From contig JAPDJW010000001.1 of NCBI GenBank assembly GCA_029258885.1, forward strand, positions 36,089 to 100,088: DNA of 64,000 bases, in the 5' to 3' direction. This DNA is from Thermoproteota archaeon. Lineage in GTDB: Archaea > Thermoproteota > Thermoprotei > Thermofilales > B9-G17. This document shows, in pieces, positions 7,544 to 60,963 of this stretch. Position numbers and translations under genes: made by a program. Every line of letters starts with the position of its first letter. The first letter of the stretch is position 1. Below the pieces are notes generated by a model. The model had not been told where the DNA came from and made no database searches. It saw only the letters and a program-made list of their open reading frames with translations.

Positions 7544-7888
7544 CTAGTCTATAAGAACGGTATTTACCTGAACTATATCCTCAGTAATAATATTTCCTCT
7601 CACTAATTTCCTTTTCCTCATCCCCTTCTTAGGAGGATGATAGCCAGGAGGGCCGGAAAGAAGTATCCTTTTCTTACCGCTTATAGGTAGATCCGGCCTC
7701 ATAGGTTCACCTGCTCTCCCTGAACCGCCTGTAATTTTAAGCTTCTTCCCCCTAAATCCTAGAATGCTTCCGTCAATAACATCTCCTATTCGTAGTCCTA
7801 CGAAGACACGAGCTTTCTCTCCCTTTACCTCAATTTGCTGAGCCTTACCCGTCTTAGGATCAGATACAACAACCTTAAACTCAGGCAT
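7544..7888 (-). CDS. rps6e: 30S ribosomal protein S6e
   Basis: MPEFKVVVSDPKTGKAQQIEV... is typical of S6e. I chose the internal ATG at 7888 rather than the ORF-track start at 7915. Confidence 0.9.
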   Translation of the reverse strand: MPEFKVVVSDPKTGKAQQIEVKGEKARVFVGLRIGDVIDGSILGFRGKKLKITGGSGRAGEPMRPDLPISGKKRILLSGPPGYHPPKKGMRKRKLVRGNIITEDIVQVNTVLID

Positions 7889-9041: not shown

Positions 9042-9620
9042 TTAAAATCTTTTTCTTACAGGTGGAGGTACTACAAAGAGATAATACTTTTGTCCGCCCT
9101 TTATTTCCTCAAGTATTCTTTCAACTATTAGCCTTTTTGGATCGCTTATTCTAGTCCTTTCTTGAATATCCTTAAATGATTCGAAGGGACGCTTCTTCCT
9201 TTCTTCTAGAATTTTCCACAGAGTCTTTTTCCCTACACCTCTTAGCAATTCTAAGCTATGCATGCGTGTAGTTAGGGGGCTAGCCTTATTGAAGAATTCT
9301 ACAAACTTCTCTGCTTTTCTCGTAACTATTTCTTCGATAACTTCAGGAAGCTCTCCCTTCGCTGTCTGTGTAAGCTCATCATACGTTAATCTTCTGGTAA
9401 TTCGCCTAACTTTACTTATGTCATGTTTACCAACATATACTCTTTCTCGTATTGAAAGAGGAATACCTTCATACGGTTGAAGCTCCAGTAACATAAAGTA
9501 GTCTTCGCCTACAGCTTGAGCCAAAGGTCCACGTATAAATCCCCGAGGAGTATAATACCCATATGGAAGGTAGTCAAGAACTATAACATATTCTTCGTAC
9601 GCCTTAGGCTGCCTATACAT
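9042..9620 (-). CDS. DUF655-family nucleic-acid-binding protein (COG1491)
   Basis: EEYVIVLDYLPYGY N-terminus and a C-terminal helix-hairpin-helix-like LELLRGVGKKTLWKILEER. It sits immediately downstream of rpo4, the usual archaeal arrangement. Confidence 0.6.
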   Translation of the reverse strand: MYRQPKAYEEYVIVLDYLPYGYYTPRGFIRGPLAQAVGEDYFMLLELQPYEGIPLSIRERVYVGKHDISKVRRITRRLTYDELTQTAKGELPEVIEEIVTRKAEKFVEFFNKASPLTTRMHSLELLRGVGKKTLWKILEERKKRPFESFKDIQERTRISDPKRLIVERILEEIKGGQKYYLFVVPPPVRKRF

Positions 9621-31213: not shown

Positions 31214-31288
31214 GGGCCCGTAGCTTAGCCTGGCCGGAGCATCCGGCTGATAACCGGAAGGTCGTGGGTTCGAATCCCACCGGGCCCA
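31214..31288 (+). tRNA. tRNA-Ile (GAU)
   Basis: Hand-folded. GGGCCCG/CGGGCCC acceptor, anticodon arm TCCGG-CTGATAA-CCGGA, T arm GTGGG-TTCGAAT-CCCAC, discriminator A. Confidence 0.9.
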
Positions 31289-31589: not shown

Positions 31590-33087
<1,498 letters not shown>

Positions 33088-33185
33088 CTTATCGGGCGGA
33101 CTCGCTAAGGTGGGCTTGCTGGCTTCATGTAATGCAACCCGGGAGGTAACCTCTCGGGTGAAGGGCACGAATTCTAAAGATGTGT

Positions 33186-33229
33186 GCCATGCATAGGATA
33201 CGCCCACGTATTCCACGCCAGCTAGATCT
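33186..33229 (+). other. 5' strand of the 23S rRNA processing stem (pairs with ~36364-36408)
   Basis: GCCATGCATAGGATACGCCCACGTATTCCACGCCAGCTAGATC versus the reverse complement of GGTCTGGCTGGCGTGGACGTAGAGGGTGTGTCCTATGCATGGC. This is a long interrupted helix flanking the 23S. Confidence 0.7.
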
Positions 33230-40624: not shown

Positions 40625-40698
40625 TGGGCCCGGTGGGATTCGAACCCACGACCCCCGGGTTATGAGCCCGGTGCTCTACCTGGCTAAGCTACGGGCCA
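40625..40698 (-). tRNA. tRNA with CAU anticodon (Met, or Ile2 if C34 is agmatinylated)
   Basis: The minus strand reads TGGCCCG-TA-GCTT-AGCCAGGTA-GAGC-A-CCGGG-CTCATAA-CCCGG-GGGTC-GTGGG-TTCGAAT-CCCAC-CGGGCCC-A. Positions 1:72 read as a U-C mismatch. Confidence 0.85.
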
Positions 40699-40805
40699 AT
40701 AATATAAAGTTGATAATATAATTTAAGTTTTTCTCCATAGCTAATGTATGTCGAGACATTAATTAATATATAAGCTCCACAGAAGTATTGACGAGGAACT
40801 TAGCT

Positions 40806-42395
40806 ATGAGCTTCGAAATAATAGATAAGGATCTATTAGGTAGAATAGGCAGACTATACACTAGCCATGGCGTTATAGAGACTCCTGCAATAGCGCCAGT
40901 TATAAATCCGGCTAAGATGACGATTAGCCCAGATACCATCGTGAGGATGGGCTTTAAGCTGATTATGACAAACGCATACATAATTTGGAAGAGATTTGGG
41001 CTGCTTGGAGTAGAGATGGGCGTGCATGGACTTCTAGGAGTGAAAACGCCGATAATGACGGATTCCGGTGCTTATCAATTGATGGAATACGGTGAAGTGG
41101 ATATTGACCCGGATAGTATATTAGAATATCAGGAGGATATAGGCAGCGATATAGCCGTAATTTTGGATATTCCTACGCGATATAATACCCCCAGGGATGT
41201 TGTTGTAGAGGAGGTTAGGGAGACTATTGATCGGGCTATAAATGCCATAAAAAAGAGGAGAAGAAACGATATCTTACTAGTTGCTCCTATCCAAGGGGGT
41301 ATATACTATGATGTAGTTGAAGAGTGTGCAAGAGAGCTTGCAAAATATGACTTCGATGTGTATGCTATAGGGGGGCCGACTCAAATAATGGCCATGTACA
41401 AGTATAATGAGCTTGTCGATTTAATTATGCATGCGAAGATGAACATTCCTCCAAATAAGCCTGTACATCTCTTTGGAGCTGGAAATCCTATAATGTTACC
41501 TCTTGCTGTTGCTCTAGGAGTAGATCTCTTCGATTCAGCAGCCTATGCCTTATACGCAAGGGATCTAAGATACATGACTAGTACAGCCATTATCAGGTTT
41601 GAGAGGCTAAGCTATTTGCCATGTAATTGCCCCGTGTGTAGCAAGTACAGCCTAGATGACTTAAAAAGCATGCCTAGGCGGGAGCTTGAGCAAAAAATAG
41701 CATTACATAATCTATACGTAATTAAAAGGGAAATAGATGTCATAAGGAACAGAATAAGGGAGGGTAGTTTATGGGAATATATTGAGCTTAAGGCTAGGTG
41801 TCATCCAAGACTTATGGACGCTCTAGCTGAAATAGGAAAATACAAAGATTACATAGAAAAGTTTGATCCTGTAACCAAGCCGAATGCTAGAGGAATTTTC
41901 ATATATGATATACTATCGTATAACAGACCCGAGATCGTAAGGTTCCGAAAAAGGCTTATGTCTAACTTAAAGTTAGATGAAAATATAACCTTGCTGCTAC
42001 TACCGGAAACTTTTGAAAAGCCATTTCATAGATCGAAATATATAGTAGAGATCATTAACATGGTAAGGAACTGTTTGAATAATGAGAAAATTAAGGTTAT
42101 GATTTACTGTAAAGGTTTTGGTTTAATACCGCTAGAAATAGATGAACTCTATCCCTTATCACAGTATGAGGCTACCCTGAATATTTCGCTTGACGAAGTA
42201 AGCAATATCACTAATTTTATTATAGAGTATGTTGTAAAACATAAGAAGTCTATTAAAACCCTAGCTATAGTAGTTGATGAGAATAGGTGGCCGAAGATTT
42301 TTTACGAGCGCCTCAGTGAGAAGCTTAAAAACTCGGTTAAAATACTCTTCTACAGGCTGTCGAATTCGGAAGGCTTTATCGAAAATATTGAATGA
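40806..42395 (+). CDS. tgtA: archaeosine tRNA-guanine transglycosylase (ArcTGT)
   Basis: MSFEIIDKDLLGRIGRLYTSHGVIETPAI, DSGAYQ, GGP and the zinc site CNCPVC...H. ATG at 40806, with a TATA-like TTAATTAATATATAAG ~30 nt upstream. 529 aa; no clear C-terminal PUA domain recognised. Confidence 0.85.
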   Translation: MSFEIIDKDLLGRIGRLYTSHGVIETPAIAPVINPAKMTISPDTIVRMGFKLIMTNAYIIWKRFGLLGVEMGVHGLLGVKTPIMTDSGAYQLMEYGEVDIDPDSILEYQEDIGSDIAVILDIPTRYNTPRDVVVEEVRETIDRAINAIKKRRRNDILLVAPIQGGIYYDVVEECARELAKYDFDVYAIGGPTQIMAMYKYNELVDLIMHAKMNIPPNKPVHLFGAGNPIMLPLAVALGVDLFDSAAYALYARDLRYMTSTAIIRFERLSYLPCNCPVCSKYSLDDLKSMPRRELEQKIALHNLYVIKREIDVIRNRIREGSLWEYIELKARCHPRLMDALAEIGKYKDYIEKFDPVTKPNARGIFIYDILSYNRPEIVRFRKRLMSNLKLDENITLLLLPETFEKPFHRSKYIVEIINMVRNCLNNEKIKVMIYCKGFGLIPLEIDELYPLSQYEATLNISLDEVSNITNFIIEYVVKHKKSIKTLAIVVDENRWPKIFYERLSEKLKNSVKILFYRLSNSEGFIENIE

Positions 42396-43273: not shown

Positions 43274-43489
43274 ATGAGTCCAAGCGAGAAAGTGTGCTCA
43301 ATTAAAGGATGCAGTAATCCATCGGTCAAAACAATCTCTCTCGAAATGTATAGGAAATCAGGGTTAAATCTAGAATTAAAGGATGATATTAGAAGGAAAG
43401 TCCATTTATGTAGGGAACACTATAAGGAATATAAGAGATTTATTAAAAAGTATCTAAGGCTGGAGAGATGGAGACTATGGAGAACATAG
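43274..43489 (+). CDS. small basic Cys/His protein overlapping the polB start
   Basis: 71 aa with C-x4-C (CSIKGC) and C-x2-H (CREH), and a Lys/Arg-rich C-terminus. Its stop lies 22 nt inside the polB ORF. Confidence 0.35.
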   Translation: MSPSEKVCSIKGCSNPSVKTISLEMYRKSGLNLELKDDIRRKVHLCREHYKEYKRFIKKYLRLERWRLWRT

Positions 43490-45984
43490 GAGAGAAGTTT
43501 AAGGAGGTTTTTCTTCTTCTGTCAGTAGCATATGATGGTAATGCAGGTAAGGCTTATTTAAAATTATACGATGTAGCTAATAATACCATTAGGGTATGGT
43601 ATGACAGTTCTGGACATAAGCCCTATCTTCTCACAAACCTCTATCCGGAAGAGATAGCTGATAGATATCCTCAAGTCATCTCTCATCCGGGCTTTGACCA
43701 CATGGAGGTTGTTAAAAAGATGGATGTACTTCGAGATAGGGAGATATTCTTGACAAAAATAGTTGCCCGTGATCCTCTCTCAATAGGAGGATCTAGGAAA
43801 TCTATAAGAGAGATCCTGCCTAGGACCTGGGAGGCTAGGATTAAGTATCATTTATGCTATATATATGATACTCAGTTGCTACCGGGAATGTTTTATGTGA
43901 TTAGGAATGGTATGCTCGAAAGGGTAAGGATTAGTATACCATTGGATGTTAAGAGGAAGGTAGAGGGCATATACTCAGAAAAAGAAACAGTAAAGAAGGC
44001 TTATGATTGGCTGGAGCTCTTTCAAGCTCCAATTCCCTTCATAAGAAGGATAGCTCTTGATATAGAGGTATATTCTCCTGTACCGGACAGGATACCTAAC
44101 CCTAAGGAGGCTAATTATTCCATAATAGCTGTAGCCTTTGCTGCAAACGATGGCTTTAACGAGGTGGTCATTTTAAAAAGAAAACATGAAAAAGAGGATT
44201 ATATTGCATCGTCATCCTATAATGTGAGATTCTTTGAGGACGAAAGAGAAATGTTGCGTTATGTTTTTAAGGTAATTGAAAGCTATCCTGTAGTTCTAAC
44301 ATTTAATGGCGACAATTTTGACATGCGTTATCTGTTGCATAGGGCTAAGTTACTGGGCATAAAGGACGAGGAGATACCTCTTCATGGGGGAAGGGACGAG
44401 GTAAACTTAAAGAGAGGTGTTCACATCGATCTTTATCGTTTCTTTAATAACCATGCAATGCAGGTATATGCCTTTAGCAACAAATATCAGGAGACGAAAA
44501 CACTGGACACAATATCCCAAGCATTAATAAATGAAGGAAAAGTGCATATAGATAAACCGATATCAGAGCTTTCATACCAGGAGCTAGCGAACTACTGTTA
44601 CCAGGATGCCTATTTGACACTTAAATTAACCACCTATAATAACGACTTGGTGATGAAGCTGATTATTCTGCTAATGCGTATCTCGAAGCTTCCCATGGAA
44701 GATATTATACGTCATAGCATTTCGCACTGGATCAAAAGTCTTATGTATTTTGAACATAGGAAAAGGGGATACTTGATACCTAATCCTGAAGACATAATGA
44801 GCATGAAGGGAAAAACATATACTAAGGCTATAATCAAAGGTAAAAAGTATCTCGGTGCAATAGTTATTGATCCGCTTCCCGGTGTATTCTTCAATGTTAT
44901 AGTCGTGGATTTCGCGTCACTTTATCCATCCGTCATAAAAAGGTGGAATTTGTCATATGAAACTATCCTTTGTCCACATGAAGAATGTAAGTCAAACAAG
45001 CTTTTCGGACTTCCCTACTGGGTGTGTAAAAAGAAGAGGGGTCTAATAGCCGAAATTGTAGGCTTTCTAAGGGACTTCAGGGTCTTCATATATAAACCAT
45101 TAGCTAAAGATCCGAACATAAATGAAACCTTGAGGAAGCAATATGACGTAGTTCAGCGTGCGCTCAAGGTTTTCATAAATGCAAGCTACGGCGTCTTTGG
45201 AGCTGAAACCTTTCCCTTATATTGTCCCCCCGTTGCTGAAAGCACAACTGCGTTGGGCAGGTATGCAATCTATTCCGCGATAAAGAAGAGCGAGGAGGAG
45301 GGACTTGTTGCACTTTATGGCGATACCGATAGCCTCTTCATATGGAATCCCAAAAAAGAAGACCTAAGTAAGGTTATAGAGTGGGCAAGGACAAATTTAG
45401 GAATCGATCTAGACATTGATAAAAGATATAGATACGTGATACTGAGTGGGTTAAAGAAAAACTACCTTGGAGTAACAGTGGAGGGTAAGCTAGATATCAA
45501 GGGGCTTGTAGGTAAAAAGCGAAACACACCGCTATTTATCAAAGAGTTATTTAGCGATGTTTCCCATAAGCTATCGAAGGTCGAGGATATAGGGGATATA
45601 GATAAAGTGCTGAAAGAAATAATTGAATTAGTAAGGGAGAGCTACTATAAACTTAAAAACAAACATTATTCTCTGGATGAGCTTGCCTTTAGAGTAGCAT
45701 TAACGAAAAATTTGTCTGAATATAATAAGACAACACCACAGCATGTTAAAGCGGCTAAGCAGTTAAAGAGATTTGGTAAAGAGATAGTAGTTGGGGATAT
45801 AATCAGTTTTGTGAAGACAAGGGGTAAGGAGGGAGTTAAAGCTGTTCAACTAGCAAGAATAGATGAGGTTGATGAAACCAAATATATTGAGTATATTGAG
45901 ACGACATTCAGACAAATACTTGAAGCCTTAGGCGTAAACTTCGATGAACTACTGGGTACTTTTCACATAGATAAGTTTATGTGA
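43468..45984 (+). CDS. polB: family B DNA polymerase
   Basis: Exo I RRIALDIEV, exo II FNGDNFDMRYL, pol motif A DFASLYPS, motif B KVFINASYG, motif C YGDTDS. 838 aa, no intein. Confidence 0.95.
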   Translation: METMENIGEKFKEVFLLLSVAYDGNAGKAYLKLYDVANNTIRVWYDSSGHKPYLLTNLYPEEIADRYPQVISHPGFDHMEVVKKMDVLRDREIFLTKIVARDPLSIGGSRKSIREILPRTWEARIKYHLCYIYDTQLLPGMFYVIRNGMLERVRISIPLDVKRKVEGIYSEKETVKKAYDWLELFQAPIPFIRRIALDIEVYSPVPDRIPNPKEANYSIIAVAFAANDGFNEVVILKRKHEKEDYIASSSYNVRFFEDEREMLRYVFKVIESYPVVLTFNGDNFDMRYLLHRAKLLGIKDEEIPLHGGRDEVNLKRGVHIDLYRFFNNHAMQVYAFSNKYQETKTLDTISQALINEGKVHIDKPISELSYQELANYCYQDAYLTLKLTTYNNDLVMKLIILLMRISKLPMEDIIRHSISHWIKSLMYFEHRKRGYLIPNPEDIMSMKGKTYTKAIIKGKKYLGAIVIDPLPGVFFNVIVVDFASLYPSVIKRWNLSYETILCPHEECKSNKLFGLPYWVCKKKRGLIAEIVGFLRDFRVFIYKPLAKDPNINETLRKQYDVVQRALKVFINASYGVFGAETFPLYCPPVAESTTALGRYAIYSAIKKSEEEGLVALYGDTDSLFIWNPKKEDLSKVIEWARTNLGIDLDIDKRYRYVILSGLKKNYLGVTVEGKLDIKGLVGKKRNTPLFIKELFSDVSHKLSKVEDIGDIDKVLKEIIELVRESYYKLKNKHYSLDELAFRVALTKNLSEYNKTTPQHVKAAKQLKRFGKEIVVGDIISFVKTRGKEGVKAVQLARIDEVDETKYIEYIETTFRQILEALGVNFDELLGTFHIDKFM

Positions 45985-45993
45985 AAAATATTT

Positions 45994-46404
45994 CTATTCC
46001 TCTATGGGCGATGATGCTAGCTTGGCGTATTCGATTGTTTCATCCTTTATCTTTTCATTAATATATGGCGTGACTATAACTACACTTCTTATTTCTATTT
46101 TATCTTCTCGCCATACATTATCATATGATATTTCATACATTGGAAGACTAATGTAAGCTTTATCTCTGCTTCTTCGAAGGTTGTATTTGCGTAGAATATT
46201 AAACATGTCCTTGGGTAGAGGTAAATCAAGTTCAAATGTTTGTTCTTCTTTTGTAACAATGAAATCGGAAGCTGATGGATCCCATAGATTTAGTAGTTCT
46301 GATACTAGCGATTTAACGGTTAGAGGTAAATTATCGTATTCTATCAACTCTATTTTCTCGATGCTACCTCTCTTACTATGTACTATAAGTAACTTTTCTT
46401 TCAT
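45994..46404 (-). CDS. hypothetical protein
   Basis: 136-aa ORF. 4-nt overlap with the upstream 104-aa ORF (operon). No motif. Confidence 0.35.
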   Translation of the reverse strand: MKEKLLIVHSKRGSIEKIELIEYDNLPLTVKSLVSELLNLWDPSASDFIVTKEEQTFELDLPLPKDMFNILRKYNLRRSRDKAYISLPMYEISYDNVWREDKIEIRSVVIVTPYINEKIKDETIEYAKLASSPIEE

Positions 46405-46715
46405 GTTTTTCCCTCTCTAATCTTCTCCTCTAAGATATCTTTCGCTTTAATATAATCTATTTTGCCTTTCTTATTCAGAGGAAATCTCGTCATTACATGC
46501 TCTATTTTACCATCCTCATATTCTATAAATATCTGAGGCAAATCTATTCCACCAATCTCATCACGTTCACCATATTTAATTAGGAAATCCCAGTCTTCGT
46601 CAAGTACCTGTAATTCTAAGTTATATGCATCACATATTTCTCTACATAATCGGACAGCCTTAGACTTTAAAGGATCATATTCGGCTGTTGCCAAAATAAC
46701 CCTTCTAACCGCCAT
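46401..46715 (-). CDS. hypothetical protein, possibly thioredoxin-fold-like without CxxC
   Basis: 104-aa ORF. The beta-alpha-beta pattern RRVILATAEYDP...LPQIFIEYEDGKI resembles a thioredoxin-like fold. Low certainty. Confidence 0.3.
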   Translation of the reverse strand: MAVRRVILATAEYDPLKSKAVRLCREICDAYNLELQVLDEDWDFLIKYGERDEIGGIDLPQIFIEYEDGKIEHVMTRFPLNKKGKIDYIKAKDILEEKIREGKT

Positions 46716-46825
46716 GATACTTTTATGCTCACTAGAGTAATATATAGCTTTTCATACACGCTAAAAACTATGAAACAGTCTCTATAGGTGGAAACATTTA
46801 ACTATTTCCTATGGACTTATATTAT

Positions 46826-46922
46826 GGGCCCGTGGCCTAGTGGAAAAGGCGGCGAGTTTTCCCGTAAGCCTGCGGATAGTGTAGAAAGCCGCAGAGCGTG
46901 GGTTCGAGTCCCACCGGGCCCA
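46826..46922 (+). tRNA. tRNA-Arg (GCG) with two short introns (13 nt at 29/30, nt 46855-46867; 11 nt at 37/38, nt 46876-46886)
   Basis: The acceptor, D arm and T arm are intact, but 46 nt lie between position 26 and the T stem. Removing the two segments gives GCGGC-CTGCGGA-GCCGC-AGAGC. Both splice-site pairs fall after the 2nd nt of 3-nt bulges separated by 4-bp helices. Confidence 0.75.
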
Positions 46923-47031
46923 TTTCATCATTAATGATATGCTTTTGATGAATATGTTCTACAAAGATTTAGCGAACGACATTGGCGAGGAAAAGTTTAT
47001 TGGCAACGCCGAATTTTACATTTTGGTTGCT

Positions 47032-47460
47032 ATGTCGTCGAAGGAGTTCCCCTATAATTATGAGGAATTACTTGAAAGAGCGTATAAGCTTTTGCCGAAG
47101 AAGGTTACTGTAAGAGTTGAGAGGTTTAAAGTACCGAGGCCAGAGGTAGTTATTAGTGGAAAAAGAACTTTCATCCAGAACTTCAAACAAATATGCGATA
47201 TATTAAATAGGGATCCGAAAATAGTATTAAGATATCTGCTTAGAGAGCTCGCGGCGCCAGGCGTACTTGAAGGAAATACAGCCGTAATTATGGGGGAAAA
47301 ATCCGAGCGTGTAATCAGATCTATAATCGATAGGTTTGTAAAGGATTACGTAATATGTCCTGTATGTAAACAGCCTGATACTTCACTGGTTAAGGAGAAG
47401 AAGATGATGTTCATAGTATGCATGGCCTGTGGAGCGAAATCTGCTGTCAGACCTATATAG
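47032..47460 (+). CDS. eif2b: translation initiation factor aIF2 beta subunit
   Basis: FPYNYEELLERAYKLLP, RFKVPRPEV..GKRTFIQNF, and the zinc ribbon CPVCKQPDT...CMACGA. The internal ATG at 47032 gives the typical ~142 aa; the ORF-track start at 46939 abuts the tRNA. Confidence 0.85.
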   Translation: MSSKEFPYNYEELLERAYKLLPKKVTVRVERFKVPRPEVVISGKRTFIQNFKQICDILNRDPKIVLRYLLRELAAPGVLEGNTAVIMGEKSERVIRSIIDRFVKDYVICPVCKQPDTSLVKEKKMMFIVCMACGAKSAVRPI

Positions 47461-47531
47461 CCTGGATATATTAAGGGTTTTAATAATTGTCTTTATATAT
47501 TATGGCCTGGATATAGTATCTTGGTGGTTTA

Positions 47532-48284
47532 ATGGTAGCTAGATTTGTCTTTGGGGATGCTAGAGAGTGGAGGTATATTGTCGATAGCCTAGCAACACTC
47601 ATAGAGGAAGCTAATTTCATAATGGACCCTACGGGGTTAAGGCTTAGAGCATTAGATCCTTCGAGAATAGCTATGGTTGATTTTATGCTCCCCTCAACGG
47701 CATTTGAGGAGTACGAGTGTGATGAAGAGACGCGAATTGGTGTGTCGTTCGACGACCTAAATAAGATCTTAAAGAGAGGGAGGGCAGACGAACGCCTCGT
47801 GTTTGAGGTAGCAGAGGATCGTCTTAGAATCAAGATCATAGGTAAGATTGAGAGAATATTTTCGCTGCCATTACTAGACATAGGTGGTGAGGAGTTAAAG
47901 CGGACGCCTAAAGTATCCTTTACTGCAAGAGCGCGTATGCTCAGCGATACATTATATGATGCCATTAAGGATGCAACATTAGTGAGTGATAGCGTGAAAT
48001 TTTCAGCCAAGCCTGAGGAATTTATAATCTATGCTGCTAGTGATAAGGGAGAAATAAACGTACGTTTCACGGAGGAGGGAGGTGCACTAATAGAATATGA
48101 AGTTTCTGAACCCGCTGAGGCCGTCTACAGTCTCGGATACCTCAATGATATCCTGAAAAAAGCGAATAAAGTATCAGATATGGTATTAGTTGAATTTGCA
48201 ACAAACAATCCATTATCGCTAACGTTCGATGTTGTAGGCGAAGGAAAGCTAACATACTTCCTTGCTCCTAGAATGGAAATGTAA
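47532..48284 (+). CDS. pcn: DNA polymerase sliding clamp (PCNA)
   Basis: 250 aa. ...WRYIVDSLATLIEEANFIMDPTGLRLRALDPSRIAMVDF... and the C-terminal LAPRME are typical of archaeal PCNA. Confidence 0.9.
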   Translation: MVARFVFGDAREWRYIVDSLATLIEEANFIMDPTGLRLRALDPSRIAMVDFMLPSTAFEEYECDEETRIGVSFDDLNKILKRGRADERLVFEVAEDRLRIKIIGKIERIFSLPLLDIGGEELKRTPKVSFTARARMLSDTLYDAIKDATLVSDSVKFSAKPEEFIIYAASDKGEINVRFTEEGGALIEYEVSEPAEAVYSLGYLNDILKKANKVSDMVLVEFATNNPLSLTFDVVGEGKLTYFLAPRMEM

Positions 48285-48303
48285 CAAGGAAGATAAATGA
48301 AAT

Positions 48304-49353
48304 ATGGAAGAGACGGTAATTTTTACTCTAGAGGATAAATTTAAGTATCCCTTTACTGCACAGGCCAGAGACCATATAAGAAAATTAAATTTTTCAATAG
48401 ATGACCTAGCATTACCCATTGGAAGAACAGTGCTTTCACTAGCTAAAAAACGTATTTTAGACGCAATTAGAAGGGAGCCATTTGCTAAGGCAGAGCCTAA
48501 GGATATAGACTTGGAAATAGGTCTTCTATCTTTTCCAACGTCCATTATAATTCTTGCTCAAGTAAGCGATGAAAGATTAGTAAGAGTATTTGCTATTTAT
48601 GAGTCAAAAAAAGTTAGAAATTTTCTAGAGGAAGAAAATACCAGAAAGATAGTATATATTGCCAGAAATGGGTTGGGATGGGATATAAGAAGTGGCTCCA
48701 GAAAATTTAATTTAGCGATAAGGTTCCATTATTACCTGACGTATCAACCAGAGTATTTAGGAAGCTGGAAGCTTGTTAATAAGGTACTTCACGATGGCTA
48801 TGTTCTAATAACGAGACATGAGCTAATAAGACTAATTGAGGAGTTTTCTAAAAGATACATAATTAAGGCTTGCAACGAAGCCAGAATAAGCAGACTTCCG
48901 GAATCATTATCCATTGCAATTGAAGAGATTAGCAGGGAATGGGCTAGTGTTCGAGCAAAATATGAGTTACCAAAAATATTATCTCGAGTAGATGAGAACG
49001 AAGTGTATCCCCCATGTATAATCAATCTGCTAAATCTTGTAAGGAGAGGAGAAAACATACCTCATTCTGGGCGTTTTGCGTTGGCAACTTTCATGTTAAA
49101 CATAGGCAAAAGCGTAGATGAAGTTATAGATCTCTTTAGAACAATGCCTGATTTCGACGAAAATAAGACTAGATATCAGGTTGAACATTTAGCTGGACTT
49201 CGCGGGTCTAGGATAAAGTATAGTACATTTAAATGTTTAAATATGAAGTCTCTCGGTCTCTGTGTAAAGGATTGCAAGGATATAAAACATCCACTTCAGT
49301 ATTTTTATAGAAAAATAGGGAGGAAATATGGATCCAAAAAAACTAATGTTTAA
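48304..49353 (+). CDS. priL: DNA primase large subunit PriL
   Basis: YPPCIINLL..., HSGRFALATFMLNIG, and the C-terminal Fe-S Cys residues (C...C..C). Confidence 0.85.
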   Translation: MEETVIFTLEDKFKYPFTAQARDHIRKLNFSIDDLALPIGRTVLSLAKKRILDAIRREPFAKAEPKDIDLEIGLLSFPTSIIILAQVSDERLVRVFAIYESKKVRNFLEEENTRKIVYIARNGLGWDIRSGSRKFNLAIRFHYYLTYQPEYLGSWKLVNKVLHDGYVLITRHELIRLIEEFSKRYIIKACNEARISRLPESLSIAIEEISREWASVRAKYELPKILSRVDENEVYPPCIINLLNLVRRGENIPHSGRFALATFMLNIGKSVDEVIDLFRTMPDFDENKTRYQVEHLAGLRGSRIKYSTFKCLNMKSLGLCVKDCKDIKHPLQYFYRKIGRKYGSKKTNV

Positions 49354-50581
49354 CTGCTTTAAGAGATATTACCGAAAAAACCCTGACATAGTAGTCCCTA
49401 ACAATATTAAGCAGAGAGAATTCGGTTTTATCTTATTCATAAACGATGAAATGATAAGGCATACGGCTTTTCCAAGTAGAGAAGAGCTAGTAAAGTATTT
49501 GAAAGAAAAAGTTCCGAGGCATGCATACTACTCTACTGCATACTACGTGGATCCGTCAGCTCCGGATATGGCCTCTAAGGGCTGGTTAGGGGCAGATCTA
49601 GTATTTGACATAGATGTGGATCACATACCGACCGATTGCAAGGCTGATCATGATTTTTATCTGTGTCAGGACTGTGGAGGTATATCTATATCGGGCGAAC
49701 AGTGCAGTGTATGCGGGTCCAGTCGCATTAAAAAGGTGACGTGGGTATGTGAAAGATGCTTAGACGTTGCAAGGGAGCATGCACTAAGACTTATAGATAT
49801 CCTAATTTCAGATTTTGGTTTTAGCTCCAATGAAATTGAGATAGTTTTCTCGGGACATAGAGGTTATCATATACATGTGCAAAATAAGGATATTCTAGAG
49901 CTGGGGCAAGACGGCAGGAGGGAGATACTTGATTATGTTAGAGGCGAAGGAATAGATTTTCGTTTTCTGCCTGGTTTTAACATACCGAGAAAGGGCAGTA
50001 AGTCTATTAGCGCCAGTATAGATTCGAGAGGTTGGCCCGGAAGAATAATGAGATCCCTATATAATATCATTCTTAATTTAAACGAAAATAACTTTCATGA
50101 AATATTATCTAGGGAGATAGAAAGAGATGACTTAGAGTATATACTAGAAAATAGATCATTCTTCTTGGAAGAATTGGAGAACCCAGATAAAGGATACGTA
50201 AACCTGCTTAAACTGAGGAGGAAAACACTTTTAGCACTGCTAGAGTCGGCCGTAGATTTTTCTAAAGTTATAGTCGACGAAAAGGTCACAATAGACACTA
50301 AAAGACTGATAAGACTGCCTGGTTCTCTCCATGGAAAAACTGGTATGGCTGTTAGAAAAATTTTGTTCTCTGACTTAGAAAATAAGAGTCCTGTTGACTA
50401 TGCCATAGTATTTGCGGAAAATGAATACTTCAAGATAAAGGCTAAGTTCTTTCCAAGGCATATCCTCGACTTTAAGATAGAAGATAAAAAAGGCAATGGC
50501 TATATTGTCGTACCGAAATACATAGCTATATATCTTATAGGAAATGCTAGTGAAATAGTGGAGGCAATTGAAGTTATATAG
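49328..50581 (+). CDS. priS: DNA primase catalytic subunit PriS
   Basis: DLVFDIDVDH catalytic motif, a zinc-knuckle insert (CQDC...CSVC), SGHRGYHIHV, RLPGSLHGKTG. It overlaps the priL 3' end by 26 nt. Confidence 0.9.
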   Translation: MDPKKLMFNCFKRYYRKNPDIVVPNNIKQREFGFILFINDEMIRHTAFPSREELVKYLKEKVPRHAYYSTAYYVDPSAPDMASKGWLGADLVFDIDVDHIPTDCKADHDFYLCQDCGGISISGEQCSVCGSSRIKKVTWVCERCLDVAREHALRLIDILISDFGFSSNEIEIVFSGHRGYHIHVQNKDILELGQDGRREILDYVRGEGIDFRFLPGFNIPRKGSKSISASIDSRGWPGRIMRSLYNIILNLNENNFHEILSREIERDDLEYILENRSFFLEELENPDKGYVNLLKLRRKTLLALLESAVDFSKVIVDEKVTIDTKRLIRLPGSLHGKTGMAVRKILFSDLENKSPVDYAIVFAENEYFKIKAKFFPRHILDFKIEDKKGNGYIVVPKYIAIYLIGNASEIVEAIEVI

Positions 50582-60414: not shown

Positions 60415-60963
60415 ATGATGAATAAAATAAAGGGTGTGCTGTACGACGACGGCGTAATAGTTTGGGACATTGAGAGTGCAAAGATGCTTTATAAGAATGG
60501 TTTTTATGGTAAATATTTGGGGGTTAGAAAGGCTAAAGAGCTGGAAATGGATAAGCCTCTTCAGCTTTCTCTAATTGAGGCAGTCTATTTATTTGAGAAA
60601 AATATATTAGAGGTATATCTCGGAGGAAGAAAGCTCTCATACTATGAGTTAAGAAAAATAGCCTCCTCTAAAATACTGCTTTTCGAGGACATATACATAG
60701 TTTATAAAGATCTGAGGGATCGCGGCTATGTAGTAAAATCTGGCATGAAGTTCGGAGCTACATTTGCCGTATATGAGCATGGCCCTGGAATAGATCATGC
60801 GCCTTTCCTTGTACATGTGCTTTCTTTTGAAGACGAATTGGATCCTCTAGAGATCGTGAGAGCTGGTAGGCTCTCACATTCGGTTCGTAAAAAATTTGTA
60901 ATAGCAGTAGTAGACCCGATATCGAGAAAACCTTACTACTACATTTTTAAGTGGTTCGGTTAA
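60415..60963 (+). CDS. endA: tRNA-splicing endonuclease, catalytic subunit
   Basis: LSLIEAVYL, VYKDLRDRGYVVKSGMKFGATFAVYE..G....HAPFLVHV, and the catalytic Y/H/K context. 182 aa. Confidence 0.85.
   Translation: MMNKIKGVLYDDGVIVWDIESAKMLYKNGFYGKYLGVRKAKELEMDKPLQLSLIEAVYLFEKNILEVYLGGRKLSYYELRKIASSKILLFEDIYIVYKDLRDRGYVVKSGMKFGATFAVYEHGPGIDHAPFLVHVLSFEDELDPLEIVRAGRLSHSVRKKFVIAVVDPISRKPYYYIFKWFG

Follow-up and report, generated by a model that had tools for sequence, protein, structure and literature searches.

Within the 64,000-nucleotide stretch of archaeal DNA analysed here (the window), positions 46826-46922 of the forward strand very probably hold a functional tRNA-Arg(GCG) gene that is interrupted by two short introns, one of 13 nt at the non-canonical position 29/30 in the 5′ strand of the anticodon stem and one of 11 nt at the canonical position 37/38. 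The first-pass annotation of this DNA had arrived at the same reading, and every coordinate, sequence, helix and bulge that it quoted matches the sequence. Enumeration of the possible intron placements, the behaviour of ARAGORN on the spliced product and, above all, comparative data from related genomes now agree with it.

The tRNA body and the placement of its introns

The Rfam tRNA family RF00005 matches exactly 46826-46922(+) and gives the unspliced gene 50.1 bits, where the gathering score is 29. Its alignment takes in the acceptor stem and D arm, the three outermost pairs of the anticodon stem, and both variable loop and T arm; 35 nt are skipped where the model has 11, so that 24 nt are extra in the anticodon arm. 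The acceptor strands lie at 46826-46832 and 46915-46921, the D arm at 46835-46850, G26 at 46851 and the T arm at 46898-46914; these arms, and the spacing of 46 nt between position 26 and the T stem, had been described correctly in the first pass. All stems (7, 4, 5 and 5 bp) are perfectly paired, and U8, A14, G18G19, U33 and a GTTCRA T loop are in place.

Exon 1 (46826-46854, +) carries positions 1-29, comprising in the Rfam alignment the 5′ strand of the acceptor stem, the D arm with A20, G26 and G27-C28-G29. Exon 2 (46868-46875, +) carries positions 30-37, that is G30 and C31, C32 and U33, the anticodon G34-C35-G36 (46872-46874) and G37, and exon 3 (46887-46922, +) carries positions 38-73, with A38, the 3′ strand of the anticodon stem (GCCGC), the variable loop AGAGC, the T arm, the 3′ strand of the acceptor stem and the discriminator A. 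No CCA is encoded at the 3′ end, which is followed by TTT. The three exons are collinear within 97 nt, which sets the gene apart from the split and permuted classes of tRNA gene. Arginine identity is determined by A20 in the D loop, C35 and G or U at position 36, according to established rules for arginyl-tRNA synthetase (ArgRS). The window tRNA has A20 (D loop AGUGGAAA), which is kept in all orthologs, together with C35 and G36, and we take this combination to fit arginine identity under those rules. ARAGORN, a check suggested in the first pass, finds the locus in the unspliced gene and leaves its isotype unassigned (‘tRNA-??? cccg’), makes no sensible call on the partially spliced products, and returns a 73-nt tRNA-Arg(gcg) after removal of both introns.

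All deletions of one or two segments within the 46 nt between G26 and the T stem were enumerated, giving 11,408 placements, and 55 of these pass a filter for a legal anticodon arm (a 5-bp stem, U33 and a purine at position 37). The 55 were scored for a splicing motif consisting of a 3-nt bulge, a 4-bp helix and a second 3-nt bulge, with each cut falling after the second bulge nucleotide. A single placement, removal of 46855-46867 together with 46876-46886, gives both introns a central helix with four of four pairs in the correct register. Four pairs were reached by 4.0% of shuffled sequences for intron 1 and by 1.3% for intron 2, and the joint chance of both registers is approximately 5e-4; the motif structure is more than chance.

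In intron 1 (46855-46867, +; AGTTTTCCCGTAA, equivalent to AGUUUUCCCGUAA) the central helix pairs G24-C25-G26-G27 (GCGG, 46849-46852) with CCGU (CCGT, 46862-46865), and the bulges are CG^A and AA^G. In intron 2 (46876-46886, +; ATAGTGTAGAA, equivalent to AUAGUGUAGAA) it pairs C32-U33-G34-C35 (CTGC, 46870-46873) with GUAG (GTAG, 46881-46884), between the bulges GGA and AAA. Both introns thus show the core of the motif, with two 3-nt bulges, symmetric cuts and a 4-bp helix in which all four pairs form, one of them G.U in each case. The outer helix of intron 1 is limited in the window to G23-C31, essentially 1 bp, as A22 faces C32, and its inner helix h′ amounts to one G-C pair that closes UUUU. 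Intron 2 lacks an inner helix and takes the bulge-helix-loop (BHL) form, its 3′ cut lying in the bulge AA^A beside the anticodon stem and its 5′ cut GG^A inside a 7-nt loop; its outer helix has 2 bp with intron 1 present and 5 bp once intron 1 is removed. An alternative placement of intron 2 at 46877-46887 leads to the same product.

The earlier statement that both introns satisfy the bulge-helix-bulge (BHB) rule therefore holds for the 4-bp helix, the 3-nt bulges and the register, but not for the strict hBHBh′ motif, since neither intron is flanked on each side by a helix of 2 bp or more. In Crenarchaeota, relaxed hBH/BHL forms such as these two count among the accepted members of the class (PMC4090602, PMC3241643). 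Their lengths had also been placed near the lower limit for archaeal introns, which agrees with the 11-129 nt reported in one review (PMC4090602) but not with the BHL introns of A. pernix, which are described as 5-7 nt long (PMC3241643) and are shorter than either intron of the window gene.

Orthologous genes and the 29/30 site

Orthologs were sought by scanning metagenome contigs with an exon-anchored pattern in which both intron slots were left free (0-30 nt). Fifteen of the 20 matches were discarded as chance matches in GC-rich contigs without tRNA context. Next to the window species (L105, G+C 0.38), with its 13 nt AGUUUUCCCGUAA at 29/30 and 11 nt at 37/38, the scan recovered two genes with no insert at either position (L094, G+C 0.49; L100, G+C 0.56) and two with an insert at 29/30 and none at 37/38, namely L104 (G+C 0.37; 12 nt, AAUAAGCCGUAU) and L087 (G+C 0.57; 27 nt, ACCCCCACGACUUACCGGGGGCCUUAA). 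The L104 tRNA adjoins the class I LysRS of a ‘Thermoprotei archaeon’ lineage, and synteny with this LysRS led to further genes in L107 (12 nt at 29/30, ACCUAGCCGUAG), in L109/L110 (12 nt at 29/30, AAAUAUCCGUAU) and in L111, where the syntenic gene is intron-less and has a different stem, CCGGC/GCCGG. The 29/30 intron occurs in three genomes of this LysRS-linked lineage (L104, L107 and L109, with LysRS 80-100% identical to the L104 copy) and is missing from the tRNA-Arg(GCG) gene of L111 (LysRS identity to that copy 69%), a gene that differs in its anticodon stem as well; the intron has therefore been gained or lost within the clade.

The two intron-less genes L094 and L100 carry exactly the predicted arm, GGCGGCG-GCCTGCGG-AGCCGC, and reach 64.4 and 59.2 bits with the Rfam model. 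The spliced arm GCGGC-CUGCGGA-GCCGC put forward in the first pass is identical to theirs, so that removal of both introns from the window gene yields a canonical tRNA whose sequence occurs in intron-less homologs. The exon 2 sequence GCCTGCGG is invariant across all orthologs and exon 1 is identical or near-identical, while the discriminator is A or G among strains. The window gene itself is found with identical sequence in at least six independent metagenome assemblies, the sole variation being this A/G discriminator polymorphism, and it is therefore not an assembly artefact.

Five distinct inserts, of 13, 12, 12, 12 and 27 nt, all lie at exactly 29/30. Their first nucleotide, A, and the A that follows the helix strand are invariant in all five; the helix strand itself is CCGU, pairing with exon nucleotides G24-C25-G26-G27 (CCUU in L087), and the loop varies freely in sequence and length. 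The outer helix of intron 1 has 4 bp in the orthologs, compared with essentially 1 bp in the window, and L087 combines a 4-bp h with a perfect 5-bp inner helix h′ in a near-canonical hBHBh′ motif. This pattern of conservation is the one that constraint by a splicing motif would predict. No compensatory covariation is observable in the intron 1 helix because its exon strand is invariant. Intron 2 is present only in the window species among the recovered orthologs and, having no counterpart in the other genomes, must be argued from its motif and its product.

Synteny via aIF2β, followed through 80 genome loci, revealed no relative among the Thermofilaceae or Thermoproteales with this tRNA gene upstream of aIF2β and no orthologs. 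Copies of the two introns, as expected from intron transposition, were sought elsewhere in the window and in the loci, with chance-level near-matches only. Separately, a ‘tRNA-Arg(acg)’ called by ARAGORN in the related genome L009 proved to be a tRNA-Val(UAC) with a canonical 17-nt intron.

A different account of the locus would be that it is a decaying tRNA pseudogene, in which the 24 extra nucleotides are never removed and the likeness to BHB motifs is accidental. Such an account would suit a gene whose expression we infer, whose motifs are relaxed and thermodynamically weak, and to which ARAGORN is unable to assign an isotype. Decay is difficult to reconcile with perfect stems and a sequence that is invariant in at least six assemblies, with a promoter box that is the same as that of intact tRNA genes, and with the low joint chance of both registers. 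Also at odds with decay is the insert at 29/30, kept with conservation specific to the motif in four other genomes despite their divergence elsewhere, and we regard this account as very unlikely.

Even less probable is a shift of the second junction by one nucleotide, with removal of 46875-46885. The arm would remain legal, with the loop CUGCGAA, A37 and an unchanged GCG anticodon, but the central-helix register would be broken, the placement is absent from those with at least three of four pairs for both introns, and all orthologs have G37 followed by A38 (CUGCGGA). Least credible of all is a single 24-nt intron at 29/30 (46855-46878). The first pass had held that no single-intron solution gives a plausible arm, which is not strictly true, as this deletion passes the formal filter and is the only single deletion to give a 5-bp stem (with one U.G pair), U33 and A37; its product, however, with the arm GCGGU-GUAGAAA-GCCGC and the anticodon AGA (labelled tRNA-Ser(aga) by ARAGORN), has two of four central-helix pairs and no inner helix, carries G32 and A34, which are atypical for archaeal tRNAs, sets a serine anticodon on a 5-nt variable loop, unlike class II tRNA-Ser, and conflicts with the orthologs, which show GCCTGCGG to be exon sequence.

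Presumed splicing enzyme and proposed maturation

For the two-intron tRNA-Arg(GCG) gene, a presumed splicing enzyme is encoded within the same window. The open reading frame at 60415-60963 (+) specifies a catalytic, alpha-type subunit of the tRNA-splicing endonuclease EndA (182 aa; Pfam PF02778 and PF01974) that contains the Crenarchaea-specific loop (CSL). Its best match in the PDB is the A. pernix alpha subunit (3P1Z_B, E = 4.5e-51), to which it aligns gaplessly across the CSL. K39/K41 correspond to APE K44/R46, and conservation extends to the catalytic motifs AVY, IDHAP and SVRKKF (Tyr/His/Lys). Among solved structures it is closest to the catalytic alpha subunits of the A. pernix, S. tokodaii and P. 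aerophilum heterotetramers. With a length of about 180 aa, N-terminal and catalytic domains, the Tyr/His/Lys triad and the CSL lysine, the protein has the features of a crenarchaeal alpha subunit, and the first-pass identification of a catalytic EndA subunit at this position is borne out by the Pfam assignment and the 3P1Z_B alignment. According to Hirata et al. 2011 (PMC3241643), it is the CSL with its lysine that allows BHB and BHL introns to be cleaved wherever they lie, and this EndA is presumably the enzyme that would remove both introns.

A phmmer search with the alpha subunit against 346 ORF segments of the 64-kb window gave no credible paralog as a structural beta subunit, although beta subunits are distant paralogs and the gene may lie outside the window. 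One weak match at 9042-9620(-) was rejected, its sequence being unlike EndA. An RNA ligase was likewise not found within the window.

Upstream of the tRNA lies a putative archaeal promoter (46791-46804, +), recognised by sequence and comprising a BRE-like GAAA (46791-46794), purine-rich, and a TATA-like TTTAACTA (46797-46804) that starts 29 nt upstream of the mature 5′ end. A box of the form GAAA-N(1-2)-(T/C)TTAA/TA is common to all five tRNA genes of the window, starting 29-33 nt upstream of position 1, and the four other genes that share it are uninterrupted.

Maturation of the tRNA might take place as follows, if the gene is transcribed and its transcript cut at precisely these bonds and ligated, with the steps in the order that the sequence suggests. 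The primary transcript would contain the 13-nt intron at 29/30 and the 11-nt intron at 37/38, with each pair of splice sites presented in two 3-nt bulges, or in a bulge and a loop, 4 bp apart and cut after the second bulge nucleotide. A crenarchaeal-type endonuclease, formed by the alpha subunit at 60415-60963 and a structural subunit encoded elsewhere, would cut the four sites, and an RNA ligase would join exons 1, 2 and 3 into the 73-nt tRNA with its arm GCGGC-CUGCGGA-GCCGC. To form its central helix, intron 1 draws on G24-C25 from the D stem's 3′ strand in addition to G26-G27, and the D arm must therefore be open when intron 1 is cleaved. Furthermore, both motifs call on G30/C31 for their outer helices, in competition with each other, and for this reason the two excisions are probably sequential. 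Sequential excision is a situation for which tRNAscan-SE 2 explicitly allows (PMC8450103).

In nearest-neighbour folding at 37 °C, the splicing-competent conformers have energies of -21 to -32 kcal/mol compared with -43.6 kcal/mol for the minimum free energy (MFE) structure, and they are not the MFE structure at either 37 or 75 °C. The mature tRNA is also misfolded by this method, through a shifted GCCUGCGG/CCGCAG helix, and the thermodynamic test therefore counts for little.

We would go further only with considerable reserve. It is conceivable, though on balance we doubt it, that the 29/30 intron is an old, sequence-constrained element (A...CCGU-A-N|G), inherited across deep lineages of Thermoprotei rather than inserted recently and at random, and that by imposing an obligatory splicing order and a refolding step it serves as a maturation checkpoint.

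Genomic setting and relation to known systems

The window is archaeal in content, with a 16S-23S rRNA operon, an archaeal RNase P RNA and five tRNA genes, and its genome has approximately 38% G+C, compared with approximately 63% in the RNA genes. Neighbouring genes place the host among Thermofilaceae and Thermoproteales MAGs, the aIF2β being at most 76% identical to that of any species-representative genome. The tRNA-Arg gene is flanked by a DNA-replication cluster (43468-50581; PolB, PCNA, PriL, PriS and then a GINS-like gene). Immediately downstream, the aIF2β ORF (46939-47460, +) has 173 aa as listed, where homologs of 135-147 aa cover 77-82% of it; judging by these, the ORF as listed probably starts some 30 codons too early, with the true start near 47030, about 100 nt from the tRNA.

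Several other tRNA genes in the window and its relatives have features of their own. The tRNA-Ile(GAU) gene (31214-31288, +) precedes the 16S rRNA gene (31589) by about 300 nt, and the 16S-23S spacer (33087-33224) contains no tRNA. The tRNA-Met(CAU) gene (40625-40698, -), which adjoins a homolog of the archaeosine tRNA-guanine transglycosylase (PF01702 and DUF5591; 40788-42395, +), starts with UGGCCCG opposite CGGGCCC-A, such that U1 faces C72 in a mismatch at the top of the acceptor, unlike the GGGCCCG/CGGGCCC acceptor of the Lys, Ile and Arg tRNAs of the window. Its sequence is the same in eight independent assemblies, and with a TATA-like box beginning 29 nt upstream there is no space for an exon ahead of the gene. 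The U1-C72 pair may be a tolerated mismatch, or the 5′ end may be repaired or added post-transcriptionally, for instance through a Thg1-like 3′-5′ polymerase.

In L009 (Thermoproteales MAG CAZKAY010000005.1) two tRNA-Val genes, UAC at 7660-7748 (+) and GAC at 3997-3910 (-), both start with CUGCCCG opposite CGGGCCC-A, leaving C1/C72 and U2/C71 mismatched. Each has a promoter-like box about 29-31 nt upstream, and a third tRNA on the contig is normal; the GAC gene also has about 17 extra nucleotides in the region of the variable loop. This mismatch pattern recalls the substrates of tRNA 5′-editing, a process which to our knowledge has not been described in archaea. L009 further contains a tRNA-Ser gene with an 11-nt canonical intron. 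Many interrupted tRNA genes are present in L009, L011, L012, L014, L021 and L032, with canonical introns of 14-18 nt and one 103-nt insert called by ARAGORN, and the wider clade is therefore intron-rich.

An archaeal tRNA gene may contain as many as three introns, a situation commonest in Pyrobaculum and Thermofilum, and the Thermofilaceae and Thermoproteales are the group with the most multi-intron tRNAs (PMC3218864, PMC8450103). Position 29/30 is a listed non-canonical site, and non-canonical and canonical introns can share one gene (PMC4090602). The window gene resembles the multi-intron tRNAs of Thermoproteales and Thermofilum, as these are summarised from Sugahara et al. 2007/2008 and Fujishima et al. 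2010 in PMC4090602, PMC4033280, PMC3218864 and PMC8450103, in combining a canonical 37/38 intron with a non-canonical one, in its short introns with BHB or relaxed BHB motifs, in its Thermoprotei host and in the crenarchaeal EndA. It differs from them in belonging to another, uncultivated lineage and in the density of introns, one of five tRNA genes being interrupted in the window compared with a Thermoproteales average of 0.84 intron for each tRNA gene (PMC8450103).

Intron 2, and largely also intron 1, resemble the BHL substrates of the A. pernix α2β2 EndA (Hirata et al. 2011, PMC3241643), including a 5′ cut that lies in a loop. The window EndA, known here from its sequence, likewise resembles the APE-EndA alpha subunit in its gapless alignment and in retaining the key CSL lysine. 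A discontinuity at 29/30, with the same kind of motif, is also ascribed to the split tRNA-Ala of Caldivirga maquilingensis in the review that cites it (Fujishima et al. 2009, cited in PMC4090602). There, by the same account, halves from separate loci are spliced in trans, whereas the window exons are collinear in one gene of 97 nt.

Multi-intron tRNAs, the 29/30 site and introns of 11 nt are thus all documented, and the gene belongs to a well-described class; it is not new biology and leaves the current understanding of archaeal tRNA splicing unchanged. Its main value lies in annotation. Rfam misses the L104 tRNA at the gathering threshold, and in L001-L003 and L005 metagenome gene callers place a 36-aa ORF over the tRNA-Arg (2293-2403, corresponding to approximately 46824-46934 of the window), a spurious ORF that arises because the tRNA gene is not recognised. 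A genome annotated without intron-aware tools would therefore seem to miss the tRNA that reads the CGC and CGU arginine codons. The five inserts at one non-canonical site, together with three intron-less relatives, also form a small, clean natural experiment on the conservation of a relaxed motif, and the catalogue of multi-intron tRNAs is extended to an uncultivated, Thermofilales-like lineage.
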